Source of the DNA: Isurus oxyrinchus | Lineage: Eukaryota | DNA length: 64,000 nt | Assembly: GCA_026770705.1 (NCBI GenBank) | Contig: JANJGN010000150.1 | Location: 372,001-436,000, forward strand | Direction: 5' to 3' | Shown: positions 27,483-61,315 of the stretch, one piece after another | Numbering within the stretch: the first letter of the stretch is position 1 | Layout: each line of letters opens with the position of its first letter | Notes under the pieces: generated by a model | Seen by the model: only the letters and a program-made list of their open reading frames with translations | What the model was told of the DNA's origin: nothing | Databases searched by the model: none | Translations under genes and position numbers: made by a program

Positions 27483-27589
27483 CTGGGGAGAGAAATCTCA
27501 ATATTTATCTCTGAATGATTTGTGGATCCACTGAACCCGATATTTACAGATGAGGCTGAATTGGGGGGATGGTCAATACTGAGGAGAAT

Positions 27590-31167: not shown

Positions 31168-31554
31168 CAGAAACGTGAAGCTGGGTTTCAGGATAGTTGC
31201 TGTAACTATTTTTGCCGTCAAATTCTATTCTGAAATAATAAGGTCCTGCATCTTCCCGTCTGATGTTGTTTATAATCAGGGAACAGTCGCCATCTTTCAG
31301 GTCTCCAGACAGCCGGGTCCGATGGCGGAACCGTGGTAACTCGTGACTGTGATTCTTGGAGTGAAAGGCAATGATCCCTCTAGACCTTGTATTCCATGTA
31401 TTCCATGTGTACCATTTCACATACCAGATTCCGACACGTGCTCTCCCTACTAAACGTGCTGGATAACTGTAATTACATGGGATCTGTACACACGAACCTT
31501 CCTGCGCTGTCACCTCTCGTGGAGTGTTGCCTTTCCACTCTTGTGACAGTCCAA
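31168..31554 (-). CDS. Siglec-like Ig V-set exon (copy C) with extended Trp-rich C-C' loop and essential Arg (YYFRIEF)
   Basis: 387 nt phase 1-1, open frame, canonical CCCCAG / GTAAGT sites. Confidence 0.88.
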
Positions 31555-32182
31555 CTGGGGAGAGAAATATCAATATTTAACTCTGTGTGTTTTGACGATC
31601 CACTAGACTCGATATCCACCCCCTCCTTCACTGGGGCACAGTGGCTGCAGTGTGGACCATCTACAGGACACACATGGAACTCCCCAAGGTATCACAATGG
31701 ATGGGAGAGAATCCTGGAAACAGGAGTGGACAAGTTCATTCTACATTGGCTGATGGTCCTCAGGACCCTGATTGTGCACAAGCCTGCTATCCAACAGAAC
31801 TGAAGTTGGGGAAAATCCATTTGGAATTCCATTGTCCAGGGCATTGTGTTAACTAGCTGGGTTTGTTTTAAATCTAAAATCTATTTTTGGTCTGTTGCCT
31901 TAAAGGGAGTGTAACTGGGAGTCAGATTAATTAGGAATTTTTGGAGTTATTATAGCTGTCATTGTAGTCTTATGTATGTGCTTGAAATCTTTTATTTTTG
32001 TGACAAATATTTTAATTTATTTTTTTAAATCTCTAAAGATCTTGGTGGACTTATTGCTTCTGAATTCAGTGCACACATCTCATAATAAATACAAATTGCA
32101 AATTCATTATGATCGTGTGACCACCTTTCTCTCAGGGACTTGGTCTGCCTGGGTCACATCACCTGCCAAGTGATAACACTGT

Positions 32183-33493
32183 TGTAATATGCCTTTCAGG
32201 GACAGCAGCATGACATCACTCGAGGGGAAGTGCGTCATGTGATTTTTCAGAACTGGGGTTGGCTTAAGGAAGCTCTCTGTCTATTTGTGTGTGTTAGGTA
32301 TAAGGTATATCTTTCAATTCAAGTTTAGTTTGTATTTCTGTATTTGGGTGTTTTGAAAAGGGGGAACTTGAGTTTTGGTTTCACTTTGGAAGAAGCCGCC
32401 TATCTAATGAGTTTTTATAACTCTTGAAGGGAAGTCAAAACAAACACAAGTTAGAAGAAACTGTGTTGTTGCCTAGCAACAGTGATCCAGAGGGAGGGAC
32501 ACACAGAGACCGAGAAAAACAGAAAAGTACTTTCAGTTCTGTTGAAAGGAGTTGCCAGGAGACGCAGCAAAGGATTGGGACAGATAGTCAGTCCCAAAGT
32601 AAAGATGAAGCCAAAACTATCGAGTGGAACAGGAGAAAGGGCCCAAGAAAACCTTCTAGTCAAATCTGGAAAAGGCCCTGTTAAGTGAAGTTAAGAGTGA
32701 GGAACAGAAGAAGGCTCGAAACATAAAGGGAGAAAGCAGCAAGACACAGACCTAAAGCAAAATAGGCTTGCGAGAAGCCAGAAGATCCTAGGAGACACCA
32801 CAGGTTGGTGACTCATTACTACGGCCGTGTGAAGCCATGGTGTTCCATTGACATGGCTGAGCATTGGAGAGACAGGGCGTGGAAGGAAGGCTGAATGCAC
32901 GTGGCGATCCAGGGGACAGGAACATGGGAAGGAGAGTTTGAAATAGTGAAAGTGGACCCTTGTGGAAGGTGTCTGAGTGAAAGTGTCATGTTGGAGGAGA
33001 TTCCAAAGTGAGTTCTTGGAGAGTGGAGATTGGAAACCCTCATATGGATATGTCAGTTCAGTGAGACTGGTTGGCTCACAGTGTAACAAGCGTCTGGGGT
33101 CAGATGAGGAGGGAGACATAGCATTTGTTCCAAGTGGGTTCTGTCAGTTTCTTTAAGAATGTGTTGTCCCTGACCCCAGGTCGTCTACTGGTTTACATCG
33201 ACTGTGCACTTAGTGTGAACATGAGAGTATAAGATAGCTATTGTAACTTGTGTTCTACTTATGAATCTGCAAAGGTATAGGTCTGAGTGAAGGAGTAATG
33301 TAATATAATTTGTCTTTCCTAGTTTAATAAATGTTTTATTCTTTTGTTAGAAGTTCATCAGATGACTCCTGTGACTCTGTTCAGTAGCCTCACTCCACAT
33401 TCCTAAATAAAAAATAAAAGTTAGGACCTATCAAGCTGAGTTCCACGCTGGGATCTGACTTGCCCAGTAGTAACATCAGCTGGGATGATAACA
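32183..33493 (+). mobile_element. Probable solo LTR-like element
   Basis: TGTAAT...GATAACA termini and internal AATAAA (~33326); no clear TSD. Confidence 0.45.
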
Positions 33494-34296
33494 CCATCCA
33501 GTCCAAGTTTCACTTTGGTCTGTGAGCAGAACACAGCTCACACAGTTTGGCTGCAGGTGTCTCCCAGCTTTCTATCCTTGTATATCTGTTCTCATGTCCC
33601 TGTTCTAAATAACTGAACCCACAATGTATTTACCCAATTCCGTATCAGGGGCTGGTGCCTTTATATCATTATAAAAACACAACATGGTGATCAGCGGTGG
33701 CCAAACATTCTGGCAGCAAGATTCAGTACAGGTATGACGTGGTGAACAGCCTGAGATCGAGCTACATGACATGAGACGACCCTCGACACTTTGGTCAGAC
33801 CATAACAGAGACACAGCATCAGAGAGGGTTGAAATCGCAGTGTACTGACTGCTCAGGAAACCGTTGAAGACACAGTGACGGGAAAGAGCTCAAGTAAAGA
33901 GCTGGGGAGCAGACGGATCCCTCATGGTGAGATTACAGCACACGGCCTGTAGGTCAGTGAGTGGGACAGTGTGTATCGCCAGGACCAGCAGCGGGTTACC
34001 TCAGTCAGGGAAGGCGAGTGACCAGGGTGTGGGCTGGATCGATAGTGAGCGAGGGAGAGTCAAACACACAAAAACCATTATAAAAATCAGCCCAGAGAAG
34101 TTAGTGATTATAACGGGCGGCTTCGAGATTGCTGAACAGCAAATTGAATAAAAAACAAAGACTCCATTACTCCGTGGTGTGTTCCTGCCACAACCCGTCT
34201 TCGTGGGCGGAGCTTCGGAAAAGCGCACAAAAGGGGCTAAAGCGACACTCATCCCAGATCCTGTAGGAGAAGGCAGGTCAAAGGAATATTGTCAGA

Positions 34297-35500
34297 ATGT
34301 CCACGAAATTCCCCAGTTTGAACTGGGATGTAGCTGACCGACTATCTGAATTCAGAATGTTTAAACAGCGTACAGAGCTCTGGTTTCCTGATTCAGGTGT
34401 GACTGAACCAGACGAACAAGCCATAAAAATTCACCTCGCGATTGGGAATGAAGGTCTACCCAGGCTGAACACGTCAGGATTAACAGCTGAAGAGTGAAAG
34501 GATCCCCAATAGATATGGACGACTTTGGAAGACAGGTTCAGAATCAGGTGAAACTCCATATTCATCAACTAGAGTTTATGTCATTTCATCAGCCTACACA
34601 ATCCATAGACCACTTTGTCAGCCAATGTAGAGAAAAGGGTACGCACTGTGATTTCAAACACAGAGCCTGCAGACACAGTGAGTTGGTGATCGCATCCACT
34701 CCCATGGAAGCCTTCCAGAAAGATCTGCTAGATAAGTCCAAAACCTATAGCATTGAAGAGCTACTCAAGGATGGACATAAATACGAAGTAATCCTCGCAG
34801 GTCAACGAAGCTTACAGGTCCTCAGTACAACATCAATTGTTGACACACTCACTAGAACATCCAAACCTAGTGAGACGTGTGGAAGGTGTGGCCTTCTGCA
34901 GGCACCAAGGAAATGCCCAGCTTTCCACCAATCCTGCAAGGCTTGTGGCAGAAAGGGCCATTGACAGCGGCAGGGCACTAGAGCAAAGGCTGATGCAGCT
35001 ACAAAGAGCCGTGCGCTGATCCAAACAGACCCTACACAACTGGGAACCTTCAAGCAATAAGAATGACCATCCACTATCCCATCAGGAACATATACATGTG
35101 GTGACAGACAAACCAGGAAATGGCGATGATGTGCACGGTGAGACGAGGAGCGGTGATCGATATTCCACCTCTCACACATATCCTGACGTGGCTTGCCAAT
35201 AAATTGTGGATTGTTGTCCTTAATGATCTCTCTCAGCACATCAAATAAACTGAAAATGTCCCATAGGGGTGGGATTTTCTGGCCCCACCCACTGCCAGGA
35301 TTATCCAGTCTGGCCAAAAGCCAATGGATTTATGTTTGTCCCAGTTTCACATACTACCCCATCACCTCAATTCATGACATAACATTGAAATATGCAGAAA
35401 GTTTCAACAATATTGGCAGTTTCAAAGGAGCTCCAACATTACACCTGCTGGAGAATGCAAGTCTGTCAATTGATCTAGTCCATTTAGCACAACACAAATG
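34297..35500 (+). mobile_element. Ty3/Gypsy gag (zinc knuckle) and decayed pol remnant
   Basis: LNW..LSEFRMFKQR.ELWF, CGRCG..CPAFHQSCKACGRKGH double knuckle; stops and frameshifts. Confidence 0.8.
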
Positions 35501-36416
35501 CCAGCAGCTGCAAGAGGGAACGGTGAAAGCTTCTACGCTACAGAAACTGAGGAAGCATCATTGAAGGATCTCCTGATTCAACTTGATCTTATTGGGATGA
35601 GCAAGGCATCTCCCGGGGAGTCATTTTTAAAGGCAGGCAGGGCATCATACTGGAATCTTTGTGATCCGATATTCTTCGACAACTTGGCAGTGGGAAATAG
35701 TGGGGACAGCCTGTCAAGGTAAGAAAATGAGGGGCCCATTGGCAGGTGTCAGTACTGTCCACATGTGTGTCCATCTCAGGCTGTTGGCTGGCCGAGTGCT
35801 TACAAGGATTTGAGATCACCTACAACATTTTGACTGTGACTCTCAGCACTCCACTGTGCCTGCTCTTGGACAATGTCCTTTACCGCGCATCGAAGGGAGG
35901 GCCTGCTGAACCTGCAATGTGAAAAACTGCCCAGGGATATGTCCAATCCAGTGGGACAATTCCAACCTGGCCAATCACCACCTTATTAATTTACTCTTCA
36001 TCATAAGCAAAGTGACAAAGGTGTAATGGACATTAAGAGGCATTGACTCAACAATAACCTGCTCATCCAGCATGGTGGTAGTGCCACACAACACAATGGA
36101 GGGTATCCTCAGTGAAAGGACGGGACTTCATCTCCAAGGTTTCTGTTCAGGACCAGGGTCCTATGGAATCATTACACACAAAGGATCAGCGGTGAGGCCT
36201 AACCGAGGATAAATCAGATCCATTCCCGCTCCTCAATCACCGTACAGTCCTGTTGCATGGAGTCATCGGGCTGAATTTTCCCGTTGGCGAGCAGGGGGCA
36301 GGGCCTGCTCAGCGACACTATGATGATGCGGGATGACATCAGGAGGAACCCCCGACATCATCCTGCCCCATTTAAATATTCAGACCCACCCCCCCCGACA
36401 GGCAGGAAATTCAGCC

Positions 36417-39210
36417 CATAGAGTCATAGATTCACAGGGGTCCACAGCACAGTAAAAGGCCCTTTGGCCCATCGAATCTGCGTCGGTCAAACAAGTACCT
36501 AATTATTCTAATCCCATTAATGCACTGGGCCCAAAGCCTTGTATGCGATGGCATCACAAGTGCACATCCAAATACTTCTTAAATGTTATGAGGGTTTCTG
36601 CCTCTCCCACCCTTTCAGGCAGTGAGTTCCAGATTCAATCTATGCAACATCCTGGTAAATCTCCTCTGCACCCTCTCTAGGGCAATCACATCCTTCCTAT
36701 AATGTGGGTTCCAGAACTGCACGCAATATTCTAGCTGTGGCCTAACCAGTGTTCTATACAGTTCCAGCATAACCTCCCTGCTCTTATATTCTATCTCTCG
36801 GCTAATAAAGGCAAGTATTCCATATGCCTTCTTAACCACCTTATCCACCTGTCCCACTACTTTAAGGGAACGGTGGACATGCACACCAAGGTCCCTCTGA
36901 TCCTTGTTACTTTCCAGGGTCCTACCATTCATTGTCTATTCCTGTGCCTTGTTTATCCTGCCCAAGTGCATCACCTCACACTTATCCAGGTTAAATTCCA
37001 TTTGGCACTGATCAGCCCATCTGACCAGCCCGTCTATATCCCCCTGTAATCTAAGGCTATCCTCTTCATTATTTACCACCCCATCAATTTCCATATCATC
37101 CGCGAAGTCACTGATCAACCTTCCTACATTCAAGTTTAGACCGTTTATATATACCACAAACAGCAAGGGACCCAACACCGATCCCTGTGGAACCCCACTG
37201 GACACAGGCATCCAGTCACAAAAACACCCGTCGACCATCACCCTCTACTTCCTGGCACTCAGCCAATTCTGGATCCAATTTGCCAAATTCCCTTGGATCC
37301 CATGTGCTCTTACTTTCGTTTACAGTCTCCCATGCTGGACCTTATCAAAAGCCTTGCTGATGTCCAAGTTGACTATGTCAAATTCATTGCCCTCATCTAC
37401 ACAATTGGTCACCTCTTCAAAAAATTCAATCAAACTGGTCAGACATGACCTCCCTTTAACAAAACCATGCTGACTGTCCTTGATTAATCCCTGCCTCTCC
37501 AAGTGTAGATTAATTCTGTCCCTCAGAATTGCTTTCAATAGTTTCCCCACCACTGAGGTTAGACTGACTGACCTGTTGTTCCCTGGTTTATCCCTTCCTC
37601 CCTTCTTGAATAACGCTACCACATTGGCTGTCCTCCAGTCCTCTGGTACCTCTCCTCTGGCCAGAGATGTATTGAAAATTATTGCCAGCACCCCTGCTAT
37701 CTCCTCCTTTGCCTCACTCAACAGCCTGAGATACATTTCATCCGGGCCTGCAGATATATCTACGTTTGAGACTGCCAGACAACTTAGAACCTCGTTCCTT
37801 TCTATTCTAATTTCTTTAACTATATCACAGTCCTTCTGCCTGATTTCCAAACCCACATTGCCCCTCTCACTTGTGAACACTGACACAAAGTGTTCATTTA
37901 GAACCCTACCTACATCTTCCGGTTCCACACACAAACTACCAATATGGTCCTTAATGGGCCTTACTCTTTCCCTAGTTATCCTCTTACTCTTAATGTACTT
38001 GTAAAATAACTTTGGATTTTCCTTCATTTTTCCTGCTAATGTTTCTTCATGGCCCCTTTTTGCTCTACTAATTTTCTTTTTAAGGTCCCCCCTACACATT
38101 CTATACTCTTCTAAGGCTTCCACTGTTTTGAGCCTTTGGTATCTGCCATAAGCCTCCCTTTTTCTCTTTATCCAATCCTGTAAATCTCTCGACATCCAGG
38201 ATTCCCTGGATTTGTTGGTCCCACCCTTTGCCTTTACTGGAATATGTTGGCCCTGTACTCTCCCCACTTCCTTCCTGAATGAGTCCCATTGCTCTGACGC
38301 AGATTTCCCTAAAGGTAGCTGCTCCCAGTTCCACTCTGGCCAAATCATATTTGATCTTATTAAAATCAGCCTTCCACCAATTGAGAACTCAGATTTCTGG
38401 CCCATCCTTGTTCTTTTCCATAACAACCTAGAATCTAATGGAATGATGATCACTATCTGCACAATGCTCCCCCACTGATACGTCTACAACTTGCCTGGTT
38501 ACATTCCTTAAAATTTACTCCAGGACCGACCCCTCTCTTGTAGGATTTTCTATGTACTGGCTTAAAAATCTCTCCTGGATGCATTTTAACAATTCTGCCC
38601 CCTCTAAAACTATCACACTATGACTAACCCAGTTATTGTTGGGGAAGGTGAAAAGCCCCACCATTACAACCCGATTATTTTTATACTTCTCTGAATTTTG
38701 CCTTTGTATCTGCACTTCTATTTCTCTGAGTGTCATTGGGCCTGTAGAACACTCCCAGCAAGCTGATTGTTCCTTATTTGTTTTTAGGTTCTACCCATAT
38801 GGCTTCATTTGAGGAGCCCCCTAAGGTGTCTTCCCTCCTCACTGCAATAACTGATTCCTTGATCAATCTTGCAATACCCCCTCCTCTTTTACCTCCTTCC
38901 CTGTCTTGCCAGAAGACCCTGTATCCTGTAATATTGAGCGGCCAATCCTGCCCCTCTCTAATCCATGTCTGTGACAGCAATGACATCATACATCCATGTG
39001 TTATTTGTGCCCTCAACTCATCTGCTTTATTCGTCAGACTCCTTGCATTAAAGTAAATATAATCCAACTTTGCCACGCTATCTTGTGCCTTAACTGGCCA
39101 ATAATTTCTCTGCCTTCCAGGTTCACTTGCTCTCTCTTCTAATTTTGGCTGTGCATCTCCCTCTGCTGAACCTCCTCTCTGGATCCCATCCCCTGCCTCC
39201 CCAATTGCAT
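36417..39210 (-). mobile_element. CR1 LINE, near-complete ORF2 (APE endonuclease + RT), disrupted
   Basis: YFNARSL.NKADEL, DREGGKRGGGIA, WRTANVVALFKKG, QHGFVKGRSCLTSL, SGVPQGSVLGPLLF, FADD; split over ORFs 38774-39265, 37320-38462, 36936-37241, 36615-36932. Confidence 0.93.
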
Positions 39211-41656
39211 CAAGGGTAAAATGCCAATTGAAACCAGGGACAACATCCAAGAATGACAATCCCACAGATCACTGTGAGCATTTAAAGACACCTCCAGACA
39301 AGGTTACCAACACAAGATCTGGGCGTAAGTGCAGATTACCTCTACTCTTTAGACACTCAAATATTCAACAAATCTATACTGTTATGTAATTGTCAATAAA
39401 ATTGAAAATGATACCAGAAACCTCTTGTTCCCTGTCCTTCTCAAAGATCCATCCCTGCAGCTGGAGCCTTAAGAGTTATTGATGTGGGGCTTAATTTATC
39501 AGATTGTAGAATGATCGGGAACAAAAGGAAGCCATTTGGCCCATCGAGCCTGTGCTGGGCTTTTGAAAGATCTGTCCAATTAGTCCCACACTCACCTCTG
39601 CTCTCTCCTCCACAGCCCTGCAAAATGTCCCCTTCAAGTATTTATCCAGTTCCCCTTCTGAAAGTTCCTGTTGAATCTGCTTCCACCGGCCTTTCAGGCA
39701 GTGAGTCAATGGTCTCTCTCTGAGCTGCAAAGTGCTCAGATTCTGTGAAATTTAAACTCTGCAGCAGATCAGAATCAATCAGGATAACTCAGAATATTTG
39801 ACAGCTTTACACACAGACAGCTTTACCTTCCTTCTCTCTTTCAGTTATCTTGCTCCCTTATTGAAGTATCTAGCATGGTGAGAATGGACAGGAAGTGTGA
39901 CACTGAACAGCCTGTCTATTCTAGGAGCTGCTGTGTTGTCTTCATGGGCAATTTTGAATAAAGGCAGCAACGGGCACATATTTCAGGTCATTGCTATCGG
40001 AGACCTAACATTAGGATAGACTTCATCCCCCAGTTTTTATCCCTGATTTTCTATTCAGCCGATCGCTGCCCTGTCACTGGCTGACCTACACTAACTCTCA
40101 GTCCAGCAATGACTCAAATTTCAAATTCTCATCATTGATTTCTTACCCCACCATCCCCCCTCTACACTCCCGATCCCTGTAACCTCCTCCAACCCTAAAA
40201 ACCTCTGAGATCTCTGCTCTCCTCCAATTCTGCTGTCAGACAGGAGGTCAGTGTGTATCAGTAAGCACAGGGGTGATGGGTGAATGGGACTTGGTGTGAG
40301 TTTGTACACTGGCTCACTGGCTCAATCGGGCAGGATTGAGATGGACTCCCCCACGGACTTACACCCCCCGCTTACTAAACAGTTCCAATCTTTACCCAGA
40401 GAGAGGGGAGAATGTGGAACTCGCTCCCACAGGGAGTGGTTGAGGTGAACAGTATCGATGTATTTAAGGGGCATGAGGGTTGGTAACCAGAGGGACACAG
40501 ATTGATGAACCGGATGGGGAATTTGTTTTGACAGAGCGAGTTGTTGTGATCTGGAAGGTGCTGCCTGAAAACGCGGTGGAAGCAGATCCAATAAGAACTT
40601 TCAAAAGGGAAATTGGATAAACACTTGAAGGAGGAAGATGGGGGCAAAGTGGAGTGGTGGTTAGTGGATCTGATGGGATAGAACATTGAAAGACCTGGCA
40701 CAGGCTCAATGGGCTGAATGGCCTCCTCCTGTGCTGTATCATTCTCCGCTTCCATGATCTCTCCCCCAGTCAGTAACCACTCCAGATCCCTCTTGAAGGT
40801 GACAGAGAAACAGCAACCACCACATCCACTGACAGCACATTCCCGAGGATCCCTACTCTCTGGGAAAAGATGAACTCCCCAACATCCAGCCTATTCCTGC
40901 CACCCGGAGAGTGTAAACCCTTCAGGGAGGCACTGAGGAAGTTTTCAATAAAATGAATTATCAAATCTACCGTTTGAGAAACAATTGAATTCCGAAGAAC
41001 TCACAGCTTGTGTAGCAAACTGGGAAGTAGAGTTGCTGGGAAAGCTGGGAAACACAAGGATTAAGGGCTACAATGCCACCACTGGTGAGAGGCTGTAACT
41101 ACAGCGTGACGTTTACATAGGCAGTCATCATTATAAACAGGGGCTTTGGACATACTGGGAATTATGTGCACGGAAATAGTGAGAACATTATGTAAGCTTT
41201 TCACCAGCAGGAATTCTCTTCCTAAACCCCTCCAACTCTCTCTTACTCTCAGATACACAAAGAAAATCACACAGAATCAGATAAGGAGGAGTTGGGTTGG
41301 TGATTCGTCAAAGGGTTAGGTTTCAGGAAGCTTCTTAAAGGGAGAGAGAGAGAGTTGGAGACGCAGAGAGTATCTGTGAGAGCCTCTAAACATCTGAGTG
41401 TCTGTAATAGTAATTTCCATATTCTTCCATAAATATGAATGGGAACACAAATCCCAGAATTCAGGCTAACTCTCCAGTGCAGTAGTGAGGGAGGTCAGGT
41501 AACCCATGAGGGAGTGAGTGTTAGTGTTTGTGTGTGAGTGTGTCTTTGTGTGTGGTCATATATGTGTGTCTGCACGTGTCTATTTAGGTGTGTATGTTCG
41601 ATGGTGTTTGTGTAGTGTTCGAATCTGAGAGAGATGTTGAAGTCTGTGTAACTCAC

Positions 41657-41809
41657 GTTCCACAGTAATGGTTATGAACCCCTCCACTGCTCCATGTTCA
41701 TTCTCTGCCACACACTGATAGTCTCCAGTGTCCCTGGAGGTAATGTGAGGAATCACCAACCACAGCTCATTGTTGGAACTTGTTTTGTTCATTTGGACAT
41801 TCAGATGTC
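41657..41809 (-). pseudogene. 5'-truncated third Ig (C2) exon of Siglec-like copy B
   Basis: HLNVQMNKTSSNNELWLVIPHITSRDTGDYQCVAENEHGAVEGFITITVE with donor retained; homology to 50046-50327 stops at ~41809; N-terminal half and acceptor deleted. Confidence 0.85.
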
Positions 41810-42132
41810 ATGGCAGGAATCAAGAAGCCCGTTCACAGGATTACCAACAGAAAGTGAACAACAATTTATACTTAATGGGAAGAGAGTGCTGATTGGTTGG
41901 CAAGTGGTCTCTGATAGGTGGAGGTGTTGCCATGGAGAATGGTGTGTGCGAGATGTAAAGTTTAGACAGCTTGTCTCTTCATTCAGCAATAATCATATAA
42001 AGATCAATTAACTTCTATCGACTTTGAAGCACTTAGAGAGGCCTTAGAATGTGGATACTGAGAATGGGCTGCACTGTCAGAGGGTCTGCGCTGAGGGAGT
42101 GCTGATGTAGAATGAAAGGTGTATGTAATTAC

Positions 42133-42429
42133 CTTGCACAGTTAGTACGAGGGTCCGCTCCGATGAAACAGATGGATATCTCACTCTGCAGCTGAGAGTG
42201 TGTCCATGGTGTTTGAGTGATGGGATCAGGGTCAGAACAGAAGTATAGGTCAGAGTGACACCATGCTGAGTTACAGTGTTTGAGACGGATCCAGGTACGT
42301 CAGTGGGAGTGTCCCAGGTTAAGACAGGTGCTGCTGTTCCATTGCACGTTGTGTTGAAGGTGCAGCTTACATCCACACGCTTTCCTGCAATAATTTCAGC
42401 AGGGAATATCATGGGTTTATCTGTGAAAT
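42133..42429 (-). CDS. Siglec-like Ig C2-set exon (copy B)
   Basis: 297 nt phase 1-1; nearly identical to 26092-26388 and 53224-53520. Confidence 0.92.
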
Positions 42430-43288
42430 CTAACAGACAGAGAATGGATCCTTTTAGAGAAATATAACGTGAAGCATCAGTTCAAATAGAAACCACAGTC
42501 CCACAAGAGAAAGCACTTTTACAAGGATGATATCAGAACTGAGAGGTTACAATGATCAGGAAAGATTTTCTTGCTCTTTGGCAGTAGTGTTTCTGTCTCT
42601 CAGCTTAATACACGTTCACTCTGAGACATGTGAATTGAGAACACTGGATGAGAGAAGAGGCTCAGACCAGAGATTGGAGTTAAAAGCAGAATACTGTGGA
42701 TGCTGGAAATCTGAAACCAAAACAAAAATTGCTGGAAAGACTCAGCAGGTCTGACAGTATCAGTGGAGAGGAAGACAGGGTTAACGTTTTGAGTCCGTAT
42801 GACTCTTCATCAGACCAGAGGTTTGAGTTCACTGGCTTCTCATTTCCTCAGTGATCTGGGTGATTTATTACATTGTGGTTTGCTGGATCTTGCTGTGCAC
42901 AAACTGCCTGCTGTGTTTTACATCTGTGACTACAATTCAGGAATAATTTCATTGGCTGTGAAGGGATTTGGATCCTCCTGAGGTGGTAAATTGCGCTGCA
43001 GAAATGCACATCTTTCTTTTATCGATACGTCAGACTTTTAAACAGGACAGGAGAGATTGATGGGAGTGGATAACCTGATAATACAGTTAATGCTTTTCAT
43101 CATTGATATTAAAGTGAGTATTAGATGTTGCTTTAGGACTAAACTGGAAGCCATCACCAGGTTATTGAGAATCAGACAATGTGTTAAAACAAGCTGTGTT
43201 TTGTGTTAATATGTAAACGTCACAGTTTGTGTTATTTCCCATTGAGTGTTGAATGTGAATTGTTGAGTAATTATAACACAGCACTTAC

Positions 43289-43657
43289 CAGAAACGTGAA
43301 GCTGGGTTACAGGGTAATAGTTATGGCTCGGACCATTGTCAAATTCTATTCTGAAAAAATAAGGTCCTGCATCTTCCCTTCTGATGTTGTTTATAATCAG
43401 GGAACAGTCGCCATCTTTCAGGTCTCCAGACAGCCGGGTCTGATGGCGGAACCGTGGTAACTCGAGACTGTGATCCTTGGAGTGAAAGGCTATGGGAGCC
43501 CAGGGAATCTGTTTCTCATTATTAAACCAGACTCCACCTCGTGGTTGATTTTCCAAATGTGCTGGATAACTGTAATGACATGGAATCTGTACACACGAAC
43601 CTTCCTGCGCTGTCACATCTCGTGGAGTGTCACCTTTCCACTCTTGTGACAGTCCAA
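43289..43657 (-). CDS. Siglec-like Ig V-set exon (copy B) with essential Arg
   Basis: 369 nt phase 1-1; GLSQEWKGDTPRDVTAQEGSCVQIPC...GDCSL...YFFRIEFDNGPSHNYYPVTQLHVS. Confidence 0.92.
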
Positions 43658-44519
43658 CTGGGGAGAGAAATATCAATATTTAACTCTGGATGGTTTGTAG
43701 ATCCACTAGACTCGATATCCACCCCCTCCATCACTGGGGCACATTGGCTGCAGTGTGGACCATCTACAGGACACACATGGAACTCCCCAGGGGTTTCATA
43801 ATGGATGGAAGAGAATCCTGGACACAGGAGTGGACAACTTCATTCTACATTGGCTCATGGTCCTCAGGACCCTGTTTAGTGAAGCCAGTCTTCCACCCAA
43901 CACAGTGTTTACAAGACACACAGGGAAACTGTGTAAACATCTCATCTCTCTAAACTGACTGGTTTGTCTTCGGTTTAACTTTCAGTTATTTTACTTCCTT
44001 ATTATGGTTGCTATGGTGAAACTGTGCAGGAAGTGCGAGGGCTGGACTCTCTGTCTATTCTCACTGCAGCTGTGATGTAGTCGTGGTGGTTTTCAGTAAA
44101 ATGAAACCCTCTGATCTCCTCCATCGCCGAGGTTTAGGGAGTGAATTCCAGAGCTCAGGCCCCAGGCAGCTGAAGGCCCGGCCGCCAGTATTGGAGTGAT
44201 GGGAATCGGGGGATGGTCAAGAGGCCGGAATTGGAGTAACACAGAGATCTGGGACGTTGGTTGGGAGAGTTGCAGGAGGTTACAGAGATAAGGAGGCAGT
44301 GTGAGGCAATGGATGCATTTGAACAAAGAGATGTGAATCTTAAGTTTGAGATGTTGTAGGACCAGGAGTCAGATAGTTTAGGGGTGATGGGTGAATGGGA
44401 CTTGGTGTGAGTTTGTACACTGGCTCACTGCTGAATCAGTTCCCAATCACAGCTCAATAAGAATGATCTTTTACAAAGACTATTCACCATAAATCTGTCT
44501 GAGCTGACGATGATATTAC

Positions 44520-44559
44520 CTTGGAGAAGTGACAGGAGGAAGTAAGATTTCCCGACCAT
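44520..44559 (-). CDS. Signal-peptide exon, copy B (MVGKSYFSLSLLQ-, phase 1)
   Basis: ATG 44559, donor CAAG|GTAATA; paralog of 56127-56166. Confidence 0.85.
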
Positions 44560-46860: not shown

Positions 46861-47569
46861 CTGAGTGTGGTCTGCACTGCCCTAAGTGCATTCTAGGCAC
46901 TGCCCAAGATTCCGCCTGATGTCCGTGTAACAACAACATCATGTACACGTCGAGAATATTTCTCACTGTGTCTGTGCAGCAAGACAGCTTTGGAATGGCA
47001 CCACCACTGGCAGGAGTGTGCAACTACAATGTGACATGTTTACATTGGAAGTTTCTATAATAAGGATGGGCACAGGAATTTATATAATAGAGAAAATGTG
47101 ACAACAAGAAGCTTTTCTTTGAGGCAAGAATTTGGCAGCAAAATAAGAATTTTAATCTATAAATATTTACAGAACAGGCTGAGCATTTTAATCACTTGTG
47201 TTAATCAATGTAATTTTATTCATAACCCAAATGCTTCTTACAATCTATCGCAGCATGAAAAAGGTGCAGCATTCAGAAAGCACATTCCAATCAGAGAACA
47301 GAGTTTAGCAACGTCACATTTCTGTTCATTCCTATTCGACCATGTTGGCTGCACACAGCCAGACAATGCCGTGGTTATGATGTGTCCACACAGCAGGACT
47401 GGGGAGCACCAGGTATAAGGAAAAGTTTCAGCTTGCTGAGGAGAAGAAGGACAATCTCTCGTTCCAGGTTTCTCTCCGTACATTAAGAAGCAGGCATGCC
47501 GATGTTTCATTGCACTCTGTCTGCTGATGGGAGTCCGCTTGGAAATTGCTGTTTGTGCTGATGGAAAGA

Positions 47570-48200: not shown

Positions 48201-51200
48201 TTAAACAGTCTGTCGACTTCCTTTCACTGTTTGTCTCTCCCAGACACAGACTCCAGCGATAGTGATAACCACAGCCACAAGGAATATCACAGCTCGTATT
48301 CCCAGGATCAGGATCACGTGCAGAATCTCTCCTCCACTGTCTAGAGAACACACAGAAAGAAATCATCACTGACTCTCCGCTTTCAATCTCTCACTCTGGC
48401 TGAACAATCAAGCTTCATATCACTGCAACATTTGCTGTAATATTGACCCATCCACTGGGATTCAATGTGGAATGAATGTTTTCATTGTAAACACTCTAAG
48501 AGTGGACAATCGGAACTTTCCCCTTAGCGTGGAACATTGGTGAGAATGGATCATTGTGCTGTTGGACTCCCTGTCCAATGTTTCTCTCCATCGCTGTGTA
48601 CAGGATTGTGCTGTAGAAAATTCTGGAAACGTTTAGTGCAGGGTGGAAATCCATCTCGGACGCGTCTGCGAATCGGACAGGATCGAGATGGACTTCCTCA
48701 CGGACTTACACCCCCCGCTTAATAAACAGTTCCAATCTTTACCCAGAGAGAGGGGAGAATGTGGAACTCGCTCCCACTGGGAGTGGTTGAGGTGAACAGT
48801 ATCGATGTATTTAAGGGGCAGGAGGCTCGGTAACCAGAGGGACACAGATTGACGAACCGGAGGGGGAGATGAGGAGAATTTGTTTTGACAGAGCGAGTTG
48901 TTGTGATCTGGAAGATTCTGCCTGAAAGGGCGGTGGAAGCAGATTCAACAGGAACTTTCAAAAGGGAAATTGGATAAACACTTGAAGGAAGAAGATGGCG
49001 GCAAAGTGGAGTGGTGGTTAGTGGATCTGATTGGATAGAACATTGAAAGATCTGGCACAGGCACAATGGGCTGAATGGCCTCCTCCTGTGCTGTATCATT
49101 CTCCACTTCCATGATCTCTCCCCCAGTTAGTAACCACTCCAGATCCCTCTTGAAGGCAACAGAGAGACAGCAACCACCACACCCACTGACAGCACATTCC
49201 CGAGGATCCCTACTCTCTGGGAAAAGATGAACTCCCCAACATCCAGCCTATTCCTGCTTCCTGGAGAGTGTAAACCCTTCCCAGAGCGTGGATGAACCTT
49301 TCAATAAACTGTATTATCAAATCTACTGTTTGATATATAAGTTAATTTCGATGAACTTACAGCATGTGTAGCAAATTGTGAAGTGAAGTTGGCTGAAAAG
49401 CAGGGAGGTGCAAGCTTAAGCACCACAGTGCCACCACTGGTGGGAGGACGTAAAGACAGTGTGACGTTTACATAGGATGCCCCCATTATAAACAGGGTCA
49501 TTGGACATGATGGCAAAACTGAACACTGGAAAGGTGAGAAAATGAAGTAAGCTCTTCACTAACAGGAAATCCCTTCCTAAACTTCCTTATTTCTCCCTTT
49601 CTCTCAGATACACAAAAAATTTGACACAGGGCATTATAAGGAGGAGTTAGGACAGGCAAGAGTTAGGGAATAGGAAGCTTCTTAAAGGAGGAGAGAGATA
49701 CATGGAGAGGTGGGGAGTATCAGTTGGAATCTTTGTGCATGTGAGTTTCTGGAATAGACTTCGTAATTTGGATATTCTTCGATAAATATGAATGGGAACA
49801 CATATCCCAGAATCCAGGAGAACTCTCCAGTGCAGTACTGGGGGAGGTCAGGTAACTCACAGGGAAGTGTGTACTACTGTGTTAGTGTGTGAGTGTGTCT
49901 TTCTGTGTGCTCATGAGTGTGGGATTGTGTGTGTGCATGCACTTTGGGTCTGTACATTTGTGAGTGCTTGTGTGTGTGTGTGTGGGAGTGCATCTGAGTA
50001 TATGTGTTCGGAGATGAGAGAAATATTAAAGTCTGTGTAACTCACATTCCACAGTAATGGTTATGAACCCCTCCACTGCTCCATGTTCATTCTCTGCCAC
50101 ACACTGATATTCTCCAGTATCCCTGGATGTAACGTGAGGAATCACCAACCACAGCTCATTGTTGGAACTTGTTCTGTTCATTGGGACATTAAGATGTCGC
50201 CACATCAGGTTAGAAGCTGGGAAGCTCTCGACAGAGCAGATTATCTCTGCAGAATTCCCCTCAATTATATTGATCGATGAAGCGTTAATCATATCTGGAG
50301 AAGTAATTGAGAGATTCCGTGGTGCGTCTAAAAACAAATACAGATCAGTTAACTTACACTGACTGTGAAGCACTTTGAAAGACACTGAGAATGTGAAAGG
50401 TGTGATGTCAATGTAGGTTCTTTCACCACATAGCCCGTAATCCAGGCAGACACTTCAGTTCAGTATTGAGGGCGTGCTGCACTGTCAGAGGGTCAGTACT
50501 GAGGGAGTGCTGCACTGCCAGAGGTTCAGTACTGAGGGAGTGCTGCACTGTCAGAGGGTCAGTCCTGAGGGAGTGCTGCACTGTAGGAGGGACAGTACTG
50601 TGGGAGCGCTGCACTGTAGGAGGGTTACTGCTGAGATAAAACTGCACAGTCAGAGCGTCAGTTCTGATTGACCAGTGCAATGTTGGAGGAGCACTACTGA
50701 GGGATCATTACACTATTAGAGAGACAGTAATGAGGGAGTGCTGCACTGTAGAAGGGTCAGTGCTGAGGAGGCAAACATGCTGTTATGTGTGTACTATAGG
50801 CCTCCTGTGATAATGTGGAGTGCCAGGTACCTTTAAGAGAATACAAGTGGATAAACCATGTGACAGTACTGACCAATCACTGGACAGTGTGGGCCACTGG
50901 TTAACTGTAAGTCTGGAGCTGGAGGTGGTTGTGGGAGCAGGCAAGGATTTAGTGCTCTGCCCTCTGTTACAATAAATAATCAGCTTGTTCTAATGTCGGT
51001 CTCTCTTGGTTATTGATAGCGAGCATCAGCTAAGAATAACTCAACAGGTCTGGCAGCATCGGGGGAGAAGAAAAGAGTTGATGTTTCGAGTCCTCATGAC
51101 CCTTCGACAGAACTGAGGTCATGAGGACTCGAACCGTCAACACTTTTCTTCTCCGCCGATGCTGCCAGACCTGCTGAGTTTTTCCAGGTAATTCTGTTTT

Positions 51201-54200
51201 TGTTTTGGATTTCCAGCATCCGCAGTTTTTTTGTTTTTATCAACTAACAAGTGTATATGAAGGAATGCAATTCGAGTTTACTCAACCAGTGAACTCATAG
51301 ACTCAAGATATAAAACCAACAAACAGTCAGGGAGAGATGGACAATCCAACATGTGATCACATTTCAGAGATGTGTAAGAATAATAAAGCAGTAATACTCA
51401 GGGATTTTAACTACCCAAATATTAACTGGGACAGCTTTAGTGAGCAAGGTAGGGAGGGAGAAAAATTCTGAAGTTGCATCCAGGAGAAGATTTTTAGTCT
51501 GTGCATAGAAAGCTCAACAAGGGAGGGGACAGTTCTGGACCTAATATATGGAAAAGCGCCGGGGAAGTTGGAAAGCGTATCAGTAGGGGAGATGGTGACT
51601 GTAACTCAATTGGATTTAGGATAGTTATGGAGAAGGATAAGTTTGTGCTGGGAATAAAAATTCTAAACTGGGGAAAGGCTAATTTTACTAAGATGAGATA
51701 TGATTTGGCCCAAGTGGACTGGGAGAAGCTCTTTGCAGATAAAACTGTGTCAGAGCAGTGGGAGGCATTCAAGGAGGGAATAGCGAGAGTACAGAGCAGA
51801 TATCTTCCTGTAAAGACAAAGAGGGAGACCAAGTCTGGAGAACCCTGGAAGACAAGGAACATAAAGGTTAGGATTGAGAAAAAAGAGAAGCTTATGGCAG
51901 ATACTGAGGGCTCAATACAGCAGAGTCCCTAGAGGAGTATAAATAGTGCAGAGGGGAACTGAAAAAGGACATTAGGAAAGATAAGAGAGTGCATGAGAAA
52001 GCACTGGTGTGTAGAATAAAGCAAAACCCAGAGGGATTTTTTAAATATGTAAAGAGCAGCAGAATAACTCGGGAAAGAGTGGGGCTGATTAGGGACCATC
52101 GAGGTAATGTGTGTGTGGACCTGGAAGACGTGGGTACAGTCCTCAATGAATACTTTGCATCAGTCTTCACTATGGAAAAGGATGATGCAGGTATAACATC
52201 AGGGTGGAGGACAGTGAAATATGAGAGGAAATTAACACAGAGAGAGGAGGTACTAGTGGGTTTAGCGGCCTGAAAAGTGGATAAATCCACAAGTCCGAAT
52301 GAGATGAATCCAAAGCTGTTGAGGGAGGAAAGGGAAGAGATATCAGGGGCCCTGGCAGTAATTTTCAAATCCTCTCTGGCCACAGGTGACGTGCCAGAGG
52401 ACTGGAGGATGGCTAATGTTGTCCCATTATTAAAAAAGGGAGGAAGGGATAGATCAGGAAATTACAGGCCAGTCAGTCTAACCTCGGTGGTGGGGAAGTT
52501 ACTAGGAAGAATTCTGAAGGACAGAATGAATCTGCACTGGGAGAGACAAGGATTAATCTGGGATATTCAGCTGGATTTGTTAAGGGAAGGTCATGTTTGA
52601 CAAACCTGATCAAATCTTTTGAGGAGGTAACCAGGAGTGTTGATGAGAGTAATGCCTTTGATGTGGTCGACATGGGCTGAGGAAGGCTTTTGATAAGGTG
52701 CCTCTTGGCAGAGAGGCCAAGAAAGTAAGAGCCCATGGGATCCAAGGCAAAGTGGCACGTTGGATCCAATATTGGCTGAGGCAGGAAGCAGAGGGTGATG
52801 GTGGAGGGATGTTTCTGTGACTGGATGTCTGTTTCCAGTGGGGTTCCACAGGGCTCAGTGCTGGGGCACTTGCTGTTTGTGGTGTATATAAATGAATTGG
52901 ACGTAAATATAGGGGGGATGATCACGACGCAAATGGACTTCAACCTGGAAAAGTGTGAGGTGATGCACTTAGGGAGGGAGTTGCTGACCAGAATGGACAT
53001 GATGGGCTAAATGGCCTCCTTCTGTCCTGTAAGTGTCTATGAGTCTATGAGTCCAAGATGCACTGTCGGAGAGTCAGTAGTAAGGATGTACTGCCTGTCA
53101 GGGCTCACTTTTACCAGTTAAACACCAATGGTTTGTTTATAAACAAAGTGCAGGATGTGGGAGCTTGCTGTGCACATTTGATACTATTCCAGCTAATGTA
53201 GAATGAAGGGTGTTTGTACTTACGTAGCACAGTTAGTACGAGGGTCCGCTCCGATGAAACAGATGGATATCTCACTCTGCAGCTGAGAGTGTGTCCGTGG
53301 TGTTTGAGTGATGGGATCAGGGTCAGAACAGAAGTATAGGTCAGAGTGACACCATGCTGAGTTACAGTGTTTGAGACTGATCCAGGTACGTCAGTGGGAG
53401 TGTCCCAGGTTAAGACAGGTGCTGCTGTTCCATTGCACGTTGTGTTGAAGGTGCAGCTTACATCCACACGCTTTCCTGCAATAATTTCAGCAGGGAATAT
53501 CGTGGGTTTATCTGTGAAATCTAACAGACAGAGAATGGATCCTTTTAGAGAAATATAATGTGAAGCATCAGTTCAAATAGAAACCACAGTCCCACAAGAG
53601 AAAGCACTTTTACAAGGATGATATCAGAACTGAGAGGTTACAATGATCATTAAAGAATTGTCTATTTTTACACTTGTTGAATCTCTGTCACTCAGATTAA
53701 TACACTCTCACTCAGTGACCCTTGATTTGACCAGACTGGGTGAGGGTGGAGGAACAGCTCACAGCTCGGGGAGAACAGACTCAGCATTTGGAAAAGGATA
53801 TCGAGACACTGGAGAGGGTGGTAAAAAGCTTCACAAGGATGATCTCAGCAATGTGAGGCTTTACCTATCAGGAGAGGATGTACAGGCTGGGTCTCTGTTC
53901 TCTTGAACAGAGAAGGTTGAGGGGTGACCTCATTTGACCTTTGAAGTAATGAAAGGTTTTGATCGAGTAGACATGGAGAGAGTGTTTCCACTCCTCACAA
54001 TGAACAAAACCAGAGGCTGACAATATAACATCCTCACTAATAAATCCAATGGGGAATTCAGGAGGAACTTCTTTACCCAGAGAGTGGGGAGAATGTGTGC
54101 TTCAAGAATCACTTCATTGGCTGTGAATCAGTTTAGGATCGTCCTGAGGTGGTGAAAGGCGCTATGGAAATGTGAGACTTGCTTTTGTATTTTGAAAGCA

Positions 54201-56166
54201 GGTTTCCAAGATTGAGATGGGAACTGAGAGGTAACAACAATCAGCAGCAACTTTCCTATTTTCAAACTTGGTGGGGAATGTGTCACTGAGCTGAATACAC
54301 TTTCACTCCCAGACCCTTGAATTGCCAACACTGGGGTGTGGGTGATGGAGCAGTCCACAGCTCATGGAACCCTGGCTCATCATTCTCTCAGAGATCTGGG
54401 TCACTGATCCCATTGCTCTCTGTGGGAGCTTCCTGTGAACAAACTCACTGCCACGTTAGACAGTGACTATACTTCAAGAATTTCTTCATTGTCTGTGAAA
54501 TGATTTGAAGTTTGCTGAGGTGGTGTAAGGCGCTATAGGAATGCACATCCTTCTTTTGTCAAATTGTTAGACATTTAAAAAGCATTAGGTAGACTGATGG
54601 GAGTGGATAACCTGATAACATTGATGGACACAGTCAATACATTTAATCATTGATATTAAAGTGAGTATTAGAGGTTGCTTAAGGACTGAACTGGAAGCTA
54701 TTAGCAGGTTATTGAGAATCAGACAGTGTGTTATAATAAACTGTGTTTTGTGTTAATATGTAAACGTCACAGTTTGTGTTATTTCCCATTGAGTGTTGGA
54801 TGTGAATTGTTGAGTAATTATAACACAGCACTTACCAGAAATGTGAAACTGGGTTACAGGATAGTAGTTGTAGTTATTTGTACTTCCAAATTCTATTCTG
54901 AAAAAATAAGGTCCTGCATCTTCCCATCTGATGTTGTTTATAATCAGGGAACGGTCGCCATCTTTCAGGTCTCCAGACAGCCGGGTCCGATGGTGGAACC
55001 GTGGTAACTCGTGACTGTGATCCTTGGAGTGAAAGGCAAAGGGATTGTCGAATTTGTGTTTCTCGTTATTAAACCAGATTCCGACTCGTGGTTGGCTTTC
55101 CAAATGTGCTGGATAACTGTAATGACATGGAATCTGTACACACGAACCTTCCTGCGCTGTCACTTCTCGTGGAGTGTCACCTTTCCACTCTTGTGACAGT
55201 CCAACTGGGGAGAGAAATATCTCTATTTAATTCTGGATCCTCAATGTCAACTGAATCTTCATTGTCACTTCATTGTCTAAGGAATCTCTTTGGATCCTCA
55301 ATGTCTAAGGGATTATTTCTGATCCAAACCCCATATTGTTGTATTGTTGATTCCAATGCAGCATTGTAGACTGACTTGTCCCCAAGCTCAGCACTGACCC
55401 TACTCCAGCAGACACTGTGAAACACACTAACAAAGCGCCTCTAGCCTGAGCTCTGCATGTGTCGAGAGAAAGACAAATATACAAACTGAATATTGACACC
55501 TTTACACACAGACAGCTTTACCTTCCTTCTCTCTTTCAGTTATCTTGCTCCCTTATTGAAGTTTCTAGCAAGGTGAGAATGGACAGGAAGTGGGACACTG
55601 AACAGCCTGTCTATTCTAGGAGCTGCTGTGTTGACTTCATGGGAAATTCTGACTAAAATCAGCAAAAGACACTAATTTCAGGCCATTGCTGTCAGAGTCT
55701 CAGCATCAAGATAGACTTCATCCCCTGAATTTTGTGTTTGATTTTCTACTCAAACTTTCACCTCCCCAAACCTCCACCCCGACCCCACAAGTCACTCGCT
55801 GACCTACACTGGCTCCCAGTCCAACAATGCCTCGATGTGATTATTTTCACACTTGATTTCCAATCCCTCCATCACTCCGCTCCACTTCCTATCTCTGTAA
55901 CCCCCTCCAAACCTACAACCCTCTGAGATCTCTGCACTCCTCCAATTCTGCTGTCAGACAGGGAGTCAGTGTATATCAGTGAGCACAGGGGTGATGGGTG
56001 AATGGGACTTGGTGTGAGTTTGTACACTGGCTCACTGCTGAATCAGTTCCCTATCACAGCTCAATAAGAATGGTCTTTTACAAAGACTATTAACCATAAA
56101 TCTGTCCAAGCTGACGATGATATTACCTTGGAGAAGTGACAGGAGGAAGTAAGATTTCCCGATCAT
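48201..56166 (-). CDS. Intact activating-type Siglec-like receptor (copy A), 375 aa: SP 56166-56127, V 55204-54836, C2 53520-53224, C2 50327-50046, TM/tail 48340-48201
   Basis: Five exons (40+369+297+282+140 = 1128 nt), all GT-AG and phase 1, one open frame to TAA; V-set keeps YFFR Arg; TM ILHVILILGIRAVIFLVAVVITIAGVCVW; tail without Tyr; AATAAA on minus at 47220-47215. Confidence 0.88.
50460..50770 (+). repeat. 33-bp minisatellite
   Basis: Tandem STEGVLHCQRV-encoding units. Confidence 0.88.
51037..51240 (-). mobile_element. Penelope-derived palindromic element
   Basis: Two inverted arms of CAGGTCTGGCAGCATCGG..GTTTCGAGTCCTCATGACC; same family as 16209-16357. Confidence 0.75.
51350..53053 (+). 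mobile_element. CR1 LINE ORF2 fragment (internally deleted) in intron of copy A
   Basis: LNWGKANF, WEAFK, WRMANVVPLLKKGGRD..NYRPVSLTSVVGKLL, SGVPQGSVLG; (CTATGAGT)n tail. Confidence 0.9.
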
Positions 56167-56610: not shown

Positions 56611-56755
56611 CCAGTACCTGTCCGACTGCTCGCCTGGGGAGGAACTGCCCACACGCTCTGCTTGGGCTGAATGACCTCTTCCTGTGCTGCTCCCTCTGTG
56701 TATTTAATTAGAAAGGGTTGATGTGTCTCTGTGAGACAAAATGAGGAAGTCAGAT
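56611..56755 (-). promoter_or_regulatory. Promoter and non-coding exon 1, copy A
   Basis: Donor TGG|GTAAGT at 56610; TTAAATA at 56707-56701; PU.1-like GAGGAAGT at 56743-56750. Confidence 0.6.
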
Positions 56756-60360: not shown

Positions 60361-61198
60361 GTGGTAATCTGATGTGTGATGTACCTTTAAGAAGAAGGTT
60401 ACAATGGAAGATAACATGAGCTCAGTGTTGTGGTGTGTTCTCAGAATCAACCTCAGGCCTGGCTAAAAACAGAACTCTACCCATTACCGGGAAACCATCT
60501 TTTTTGTTCACAGAGTTAGTCACGTACACATTGGGTTATTTAAATTCAAATCTTGTCAGTACATAATCACATAATAAGCATATGTTCCCAGTCCCAGGTA
60601 CATATCTGCTCCTTACCCAAGCAAGAGCTGTTTATCTCGTTCTAGCCTGGTGCTGTTTGCCTTTACCTTATCTGTTTACCCTCAGCATCTCTTTATGTCT
60701 CTTCTCGAGTTAATCCCTCGTGATCTTCAAGGCCTTTCTGGAGAGTTCTGCTGATGTCAGCCCCATGGTGCACAAGGTTCACCTGGAGAATTCTGCTGAC
60801 CTTTGGTTTTCACTAATAGAAGTCCCTGTTTAACTCTTATATCCGTGTCCAACAGCCGAGTGGCGCAGGTACCTCAGTAGTCGGTCACCTTTAGTTAGAG
60901 CCTGTAATGCGGAGACAGGGCTTGAGTTGAAAGCACACAAGTGTAGCTGCTGAGTTCCTTTGTAAATAAGCAGAATGTGTTTCATCTAAGAACTGTCTGC
61001 TGATCTACTCTGTCTATTGTACCTACTCAGCCTCTCCAAAACAAGCCTGGATCCATAAGTCCCAACAAACTCGTGACCAGCATCCAATAGTATCAATAAT
61101 TAATGTATGTATTGTGGGTGGAATTTTTGATTTGGATCAATAATACTAAACACTGATCACTCTGATTGTCACTCTGATCATTTCTGTTTCTATTACAG

Positions 61199-61315
61199 AA
61201 GAAAGATGAGAAGGATCTGGAAATGAAATCTAACCGCGGAGTCAGTCCTGATACAGATGATGATCTTTACGCAAACTGTGAATTTGCCAAGGATTCTGTT
61301 TATGGGAATTTATAA
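61199..61315 (+). pseudogene. Orphan terminal cytoplasmic exon with tyrosine motifs: KKDEKDLEMKSNRGVSPDTDDDLYANCEFAKDSVYGNL*
   Basis: Acceptor TTTCTGTTTCTATTACAG, open phase-0 frame to TAA; acidic DDDLYAN and ITIM-consensus SVYGNL; no upstream plus-strand TM exon found. Confidence 0.65.

Follow-up and report, generated by a model that had tools for sequence, protein, structure and literature searches.

Introduction

The closest described systems are the primate Siglec pairs 5/14 and 11/16. As described in the accessible parts of three papers (PMC6288428, PMC13358205, PMC5701461), these receptors have a Siglec V-set domain with an arginine on the F strand, and a form with a basic transmembrane (TM) residue and a short tail stands beside sisters that have similar V domains and ITIMs (immunoreceptor tyrosine-based inhibitory motifs); the activating partner is often lost. 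The combination of basic TM residue and short tail is treated there as the mark of adaptor coupling (PMC13358205, PMC6288428). Here we analyse a 375-residue Siglec-like receptor gene of the lamniform shark Isurus oxyrinchus, which shares these features. The gene lies in a stretch of 64,000 nucleotides (hereafter the window) at positions 372,001 to 436,000 of contig JANJGN010000150.1 (C150) in assembly GCA_026770705.1. On balance, its sequence points to an activating-type member of a shark paired-receptor family, with likely FcR-gamma coupling through a borrowed anchor, in a copy that is probably weaker than its sisters. The primate pairs number two in humans, against hundreds of shark units with three tail classes. 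The shark family further differs in forming a separate clade, in sharing its anchor exon with a SLAM-family gene, in an adaptor that may be FcR-gamma, and, for this copy, in the absence of the E-strand cysteine.

Other known systems resemble the shark family in part. Xenopus XFLs are also a large lineage-specific paired family built by domain shuffling and, like LILRA2, NKp46, GPVI and OSCAR, place an N-terminal TM arginine module on varied ectodomains; in the accessible text of PMC2413239 an arginine within the motif NxxR marks all of these as FcR-gamma partners. They differ from the shark receptors in ectodomain family and in having NxxR, from which the shark anchor departs. Tetrapod CD33-related Siglecs are alike in combining a V domain with a variable number of C2 domains, in being clustered, in their ITIM and ITIM-like tails and in falling on the same side of a major split in the tree presented below; the shark family stands outside their clade. 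Siglec-15 activates through a basic TM residue (PMC7226832, accessible text), but uses lysine. The same text, dated 2020, gives MAG (Siglec-4) and Siglec-15 as the conserved Siglecs of fish and counts four regular fish Siglecs and no inhibitory CD33-related ones, sharks not being covered (PMC7226832). The accessible text of the whale-shark genome paper refers to Siglecs in one place, where it has the family arise in jawed vertebrates (PMC8455134). A literature search aimed at shark Siglecs, with subscription papers outside its range, found no paper describing this family.

A Siglec-like receptor gene with a transmembrane arginine

Five minus-strand exons give an open frame of 375 residues that encodes a signal peptide (SP), a V-set domain, two C2 domains and a TM segment. 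Splice sites are canonical, with AG acceptors and GT donors in phase 1, the first exon having only a donor and the last only an acceptor. Transcript evidence came from unitig contigs of six runs (X1, X2, X3, X5, X7 and X18) among 23, whose RNA status was guessed. The features of the gene are as follows.

56611..56727, minus strand: likely 5′ non-coding exon, ends approximate; RNA-type contigs of X1 and X7 connect it to the SP exon
56127..56166, minus strand: coding part of the SP exon, ATG at 56166; SP-V joint 55204/56127 in X1 and X7 contigs
54836..55204, minus strand: Siglec-type V-set exon; Pfam V-set 45.9 bits and Ig_CD22 33.3 bits, both above cut-off
54951..54953, minus strand: codon 98, arginine replacing the E-strand cysteine; cysteine column aligned with Siglec-5, Siglec-8 and MAG
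54897..54899, minus strand: codon 116, F-strand arginine at the sialic-acid-binding position, aligned with the YFFR/YYFR arginine of Siglec-5, Siglec-8 and MAG
53224..53520, minus strand: first C2-set exon with an extra cysteine, Cys165; Pfam C2-set_2 37.7 bits
50046..50327, minus strand: second Ig exon (C2/I-set); Pfam Ig_3 47.4 and I-set 42.9 bits; joint to the TM exon in X7 contig 29
48201..48340, minus strand: terminal exon with stalk, TM helix, 12-residue tail and stop, from translation; Arg345 codon at 48296-48294
47215..47220, minus strand: likely poly(A) signal (AATAAA) about 1 kb beyond the stop

The original prediction, made from the window alone, described SCVxIPC and YFFR motifs in the V domain, a TM string ILHVILILGI-R-AVIFLVAVV with a short tyrosine-free tail, and a copy of the TM exon at 25108-25247. 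All were found, the copy being 97.6% identical over 170 nt. Its description of an intact gene holds for the open frame and splice sites but not for the E strand of the V domain, where Arg98 replaces the cysteine.

Comparison of the V exon with Protein Data Bank (PDB) sequences returned only Siglecs in the top 18 of 33 matches, the best being Siglec-5 (56.5 bits, E 3.5e-14), then MAG (53.6), Siglec-8 (52.9) and CD33 (51.5), with sialoadhesin (49.1), Siglec-15 (36.1, far below) and CD22 (27.1) in lower rows. Foldseek gave the sialoadhesin V domain as best fold match for the structure model, many V domains scoring alike, so that Siglecs are not separable by this measure. In the AlphaFold model of the V exon Arg116 lies on strand E97-105, and its position suggests that the receptor would bind sialic acid. 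The protein has further Siglec features: a Siglec-type V-set followed by C2-set domains in a predicted type I membrane protein, and a pair of cysteines, Cys35 and the extra Cys165, predicted to form the V-C2 inter-domain disulfide that is typical of Siglecs. The activating-type anatomy that had been proposed is likewise there, with Arg345 as the basic TM residue and a tail of 12 residues without tyrosine motifs.

In X7 contig 29 the second C2 exon is joined to the TM exon, from which the sequence runs through the stop unspliced. In X1 a direct connection of the first C2 exon to the TM exon is seen as a loose end, as is one of V to C2 in X3; in X1 the bins of the second C2 and TM exons are much deeper than the intron bins. 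No joint from the TM exon to a further exon occurs among the contig joints listed, only weak GT sites lie 3′ of the TM helix, and the next same-strand exon is the SP of another gene. Because near-identical copies block assignment to this locus, these joints are evidence at the family level. At that level the TM exon is spliced as predicted and transcripts do not continue into a tyrosine-motif tail, the two sequence-level points among those on which the original prediction had staked itself. A 686-nt stretch of the 3′ untranslated region was rejected as a marker of the locus: most of the Arg-TM units described below contain it, and it therefore permits no assignment of RNA to this gene. Summed contig depth in X18, far higher over exons than over some intron bins, was not counted, since it is no measure of copy number.

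An anchor exon common to the Siglec-like family and a SLAM-family gene

The TM exon was recovered in 17 stored proteins that span three shark orders and seven species (Carcharodon, two Scyliorhinus, Chiloscyllium, Hemiscyllium, Rhincodon and Mustelus), and all 17 carry the arginine, while neighbouring helix positions vary. Its codon in the genome is the mutable CGA (98 of the 100 matches listed, the other 2 being CAA). The exon was not found in rays or squalomorph sharks in the stored-protein search, a weak negative given the search. The arginine is located in the outer third of the hydrophobic stretch; in the Carcharodon and SLAM anchors a glutamine lies five residues ahead of it, which places the arginine near the outer face of the membrane.

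One of the 17 proteins is a "SLAM family member 9-like" protein of Mustelus. Correspondingly, a SLAM-family-like gene of Isurus (C21:89407742-89447640), modelled from exon matches with predicted splicing, comprises a V and two C2-type exons and ends in the same Arg-TM exon. Its V exon has SLAMF6 and SLAMF5 as best PDB matches and is on the same strand as the C2 and anchor exons; the C2 exon's own best PDB match is CEA, not SLAM. With SLAM-type exons upstream on the same strand, the reading of the C21 match as an orphan exon was dropped. C21 and the window share about 490 nt around the anchor, including about 360 nt of intron, and the C21 helix carries additional polar residues. An RBM4-like gene lies near the C21 gene.

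Siglec-14 has a V-C2-C2 layout with a TM arginine, and the original prediction likened the shark gene to it. Layout and arginine do agree; however, since a SLAM-family gene carries the same anchor exon, the likeness is likely convergent and the comparison one of analogy, and V-C2-C2-TM(Arg) is a minority layout, fully intact in 2 of 15 Arg-TM units. As judged from the exon sequences, the activating anchor probably arose independently of that of Siglec-14; it would likely have been exchanged with the SLAM-family gene, in either direction, in early galeomorph sharks.

A multi-megabase array with three tail classes

Exons were counted as exact-pattern matches over the assembly, reversed control patterns giving 0 matches. 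The counts were 652 V exons, 218 Arg-type TM exons (one being the SLAM-gene copy) and 295 neutral TM exons, so that the expanded shark family which had been proposed is far larger than is visible in the window. Genes with a neutral TM terminate in ITIM-like or YxN tails (67 and 33, respectively, among the 100 neutral matches listed). We annotated 864 kb, made up of 664 kb of C150 including the window and 200 kb of C385, and found 34 TM-ending units: 15 Arg, 12 ITIM-class and 7 YxN-class. Two Arg units, this gene and a twin on C385, are the fully intact ones, and four others could yield V(n)-C2-TM by skipping a truncated exon. An AATAAA follows the stop at 0.98-1.09 kb in 12 of the 15. Fifteen of the 19 neutral units pass a rough rule (SP, intact V, intact first C2); TM flags in the ITIM class are an artefact of query length, one YxN unit is possibly frameshifted, and tails were checked in part.

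A block of 31.6 kb that surrounds this gene is found again on C385, at 98.2% identity and between other flanks. Because this block and an FcR-gamma-like exon (below) were each assembled twice, the counts, inflated by haplotig duplication and pseudogenes, may be up to twofold too high. In the extreme, uncollapsed haplotypes and mis-joined repeats would account for most of the array and leave a true family of tens of genes; the unplaced state of the array contigs would fit this, as would the recurring block and the near-identical flanks of the FcR-gamma-like exon on its two small contigs. We regard this as very unlikely. On contig C52 by itself, 66 Arg-TM and 87 neutral-TM matches are spread across about 4.1 Mb, duplicated blocks on C150 form a mosaic at 95-99% with V exons differing by up to 30%, and halved counts still leave about 250 TM exons. 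Scaling 6 of 15 to 218 and halving the result would suggest some tens of working activating genes. The array, taken as largely real, likely grew by segmental duplication and exon shuffling. Among named proteins the closest come from Carcharodon and Cetorhinus (up to 83%), and automatic NCBI names for relatives already say Siglec-like.

Stalk length ranges from 0 to 11 second-C2 units among family genes; the ITIM-class genes at C150:696404-710941 and 786441-799474 have 9 and 11 tandem second-C2 exons. Several ITIM-class genes on C150 and C385 have their tail exons in two or three tandem sets, of which one bears a canonical ITIM-like motif and the others a YxNP variant, and alternative tails are possible.

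When the three tail classes are mapped on a tree of 34 intact V exons, 9 changes are required (minimum 2; shuffled mean 14.9): V exons move between tail classes, but not freely. For five of the 11 Arg-class V exons there is a V exon of the neutral-TM kind with 94-96% identity, so that inhibitory sisters are present at the family level; for the V exon of this gene the best neutral-TM match among the 34 is 85%. Variation in V is concentrated in the BC, CC′ and FG regions (proportion of nonsynonymous differences, pN, 0.12-0.21 against 0.03 in the framework), and the C2 and TM exons are nearly uniform across copies. Of 39 intact V exons sampled, 34 retain the F-strand arginine. The five others, with a long CC′ loop, have glycine, threonine, methionine or serine instead (C150:180160, 463435, 670827 and 751912; C385:68614).

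Probable adaptor coupling

Taken together with the anchor, these data suggest a mechanism in which a Siglec-like ectodomain sits on a TM segment whose arginine likely pairs with an acidic residue of an adaptor bearing an ITAM (immunoreceptor tyrosine-based activation motif), most likely FcR-gamma. Ligand binding would then activate the cell, and sister receptors with similar V domains and tyrosine-motif tails would inhibit it. Adaptor coupling of the family appears highly probable. For the 375-residue receptor itself, we infer from its sequence surface expression, the binding and identity of the adaptor, and activation.

Candidate adaptors were assessed from their TM exons only. An exon with the required type of acidic residue, an aspartate, scores higher with FcR-gamma (42.1 bits) than with CD3-zeta (35.2 bits), and a CD3-zeta-like TM exon is present on C18.

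C1723:88553-88636 and C1648:27629-27712: FcR-gamma-like TM exon, assembled twice with near-identical flanks, likely haplotigs

The accessible text of a 2014 screen reports no FcR-gamma chain in sharks or cartilaginous fish (PMC4016189). A DAP10-family profile search of the genome turned up nothing credible, its best match having an E of 0.4 and containing a stop, DAP12 not being searched for. A predicted complex of the receptor's TM exon with two FcR-gamma-like TM chains scored 0.14 against a mark of 0.34 and was used neither way.

Several observations weigh against activation through such an adaptor. The asparagine three residues before the arginine, which would complete NxxR, is absent in 17 of 17 anchors, and the activating Siglecs of humans use DAP12 according to the accessible parts of PMC6288428 and PMC13358205, so that DAP12 is a possible adaptor here. 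The TM exon varies within the genome about as much as its upstream intron (0.0108 vs 0.0118), and copy number alone therefore shows no selection. Nine of the 15 sampled Arg-TM units are broken or have no V exon. The V exons cluster by tail class beyond chance. The ratio of nonsynonymous to synonymous differences (pN/pS) does not exceed 1 for the whole V domain (0.72) or its loops (0.60-0.80), and positive selection is therefore not supported; the sole value above 1 (1.22) falls in the low-variation framework and rests on few changes. Lastly, the RNA contigs come from runs only guessed to be RNA and are not assignable to this locus.

The human precedent and the anchor without NxxR suggest that the receptor might activate through DAP12, as Siglec-14 does, rather than through FcR-gamma or CD3-zeta, and the arginine would lie nearer the middle of the helix if this begins at Ile335 (hydropathy windows begin at 335-340). 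We think this improbable: the anchor is shared with a SLAM-family gene and not inherited from a Siglec-14-like exon, and polar residues ahead of the arginine in relatives favour an outer position. FcR-gamma or CD3-zeta is clearly favoured over DAP12. Less probable still is that the arginine is no adaptor site at all, but snorkels to the membrane surface in non-signalling decoy or adhesion receptors. Such a role would accommodate the further polar residues in the helix of the C21 anchor and the short-tailed forms of rays that have no charged residue (P0093, P0095). It would leave unexplained why the arginine is retained in all 17 stored anchors while its neighbours vary, and why it always goes with a short tyrosine-free tail, alongside ITIM-like sisters.

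Arg98 and the state of this copy

The intra-sheet disulfide between strands B and E is a feature of Siglec V domains. It is predicted throughout the family and missing from this copy. Among stored proteins the E-strand cysteine stands in all 137 of the homologous V motifs that were matched; its codon is found in 100 of the 100 genome V-pattern matches listed, and in the three other V exons of the same type in the window; the Arg98 form occurs in 2 of the 652 V matches, this gene and the twin on C385. Since this copy lacks the cysteine that the family keeps, we class the copy as Siglec-like and the family as Siglec-type. Loss of an intra-sheet disulfide cysteine means that this copy likely works less well than its sisters, and Arg98 may impair it.

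The gene might even be a dying duplicate, in which Cys40 has no partner, the V domain fails to fold properly and the protein has little activity, the family remaining as described. The rarity of the cysteine-to-arginine change and the many broken Arg-TM units speak for this. Null alleles of activating partners are also common in primates, as the accessible parts of PMC5701461 and PMC6288428 report. Against it stand the intact frame, splice sites, Arg116 and inter-domain cysteine pair, and the Arg98 codon itself, which, being the same in both assembled copies, is not a one-off error. There are Ig V domains that fold in the absence of this disulfide, and the AlphaFold model takes a V-domain fold (predicted local distance difference test, pLDDT, 74), although pLDDT is no measure of stability. 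We hold decay to be the less likely outcome, though by no means a negligible one; whether the activating-type copy is fully functional could go either way.

Phylogeny and genomic neighbourhood

For the trees, 98 proteins were chosen from 150 listed representatives and earlier matches, 20 representatives being labelled by record name and the others from motifs. Sixteen without a usable C2 were dropped, including the only sialoadhesin and 2 of 3 MAG rows, and 55 entered the careful tree, which is unrooted and leaves out Siglec-15 and mammalian CD22. The shark and ray family forms one clade (100/99) and the tetrapod CD33-related-like proteins another (100/99), which bears out the independent expansion claimed for sharks. 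A split (98/93) sets these two and a small second shark class apart from MAG, CD22-like and teleost Siglec-like proteins. The shark family is not nested in the tetrapod CD33-related clade but adjacent to it in the unrooted tree. Despite the high V-domain score of MAG, a clade of the shark family with MAG is rejected (p-AU 0.0014, with one MAG row). The family thus forms its own clade on the tetrapod CD33-related side of the tree, not with MAG. V domains of rays and carpet sharks cluster by lineage within elasmobranchs.

On scaffold C34 (19.9 Mb) three family genes and a fragment lie at 15110243-15293758, between an exon for the PP2A A subunit and two FFAR-type genes, one frameshifted; an assembly gap falls at 15110243. 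In humans PPP2R1A, which encodes an A subunit, is presumably near the CD33-related cluster. Human FFAR1-3 are at 19q13.1 near CD22, by the accessible text of PMC4531286. A stretch of 430 kb of C34, 57% of which was masked for the open-reading-frame scan, yielded no exon of MAG or CD22. Heterodontus records assign a family member and a CD22-like protein to contigs of equal length. A MAG-type V query against the genome matched only family members at about 35-39% identity among 150 scored of 976 candidates, which leaves absence unproven. Because the window's contig is unplaced, we only infer its link to the C34 region. The proposed location near a MAG/CD22 locus is consequently less well founded than the original prediction had it: FFAR genes do stand beside family copies on C34, but the window itself is unplaced and the genome gave no MAG-level match. 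Other Siglec-like genes include a multi-domain one at C1037:149490-178146, a frameshifted CD22-like V at C2274:68754 and a sialoadhesin-like V at C8:88270846.

A more far-reaching and tentative reading, which we consider rather doubtful, is that lamniform sharks have the largest Siglec repertoire yet: a multi-megabase array of well over 100 working receptors, activating and inhibitory, whose V exons have been shuffled, independently of mammals, among three signalling ends. The activating end would be a mobile exon for FcR-gamma coupling that the SLAM family also uses, and the locus would unite the FFAR and PPP2R1A neighbours of both human Siglec regions. If true, a CD33-like paired system would date back to the base of the jawed vertebrates. 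The shark genome does contain hundreds of Siglec-type units of opposite signalling type together with an FcR-gamma-like exon. Should the activating forms couple to an adaptor, paired Siglecs would have originated on at least two occasions and along separate routes, and the natural V-domain library of sharks could serve for testing what drives the expansion of paired receptors. The value lies in the family, the single gene being modest and possibly impaired.

Other features of the window

25108..44559, minus strand: second Arg-TM unit, with SP 44559-44520, V 43657-43289, C2 42429-42133, truncated C2 41809-41642
Same unit, remainder, minus strand: V 31554-31168, V 27482-27117, C2 26388-26092, TM 25247-25108
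6601..6887, plus strand: V exon belonging to a second Siglec-like class and truncated by a retroelement; 97% identity to a Carcharodon CD22-like protein
61196..61312, plus strand: orphan cytoplasmic exon of the same family with two tyrosine motifs (YxN type), from tblastn

The second Arg-TM unit, whose splicing is predicted, would have open frames of 281 or 631 residues if the truncated exon is skipped, and from the self-alignment of the window it looks like a deletion fusion of two genes. The frame of the 6601..6887 exon stops after the matched part. Its V class has six more copies on C150 and is distant from the main class in the tree; six of the seven copies are truncated near the same place, the window copy by the retroelement.

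A dispersed 33-bp minisatellite occurs at 1537-1792, 23696-24377, 45380-46624, 50460-50625, 57002-57683 and 63490-63995, one copy lying inside the intron that separates the two C2 exons. The 5′ exon region (56522-56743) is repeated in inverted orientation 7 kb away at 63267-63488 (95%), and this copy marks a head-to-head neighbour gene just outside the window.

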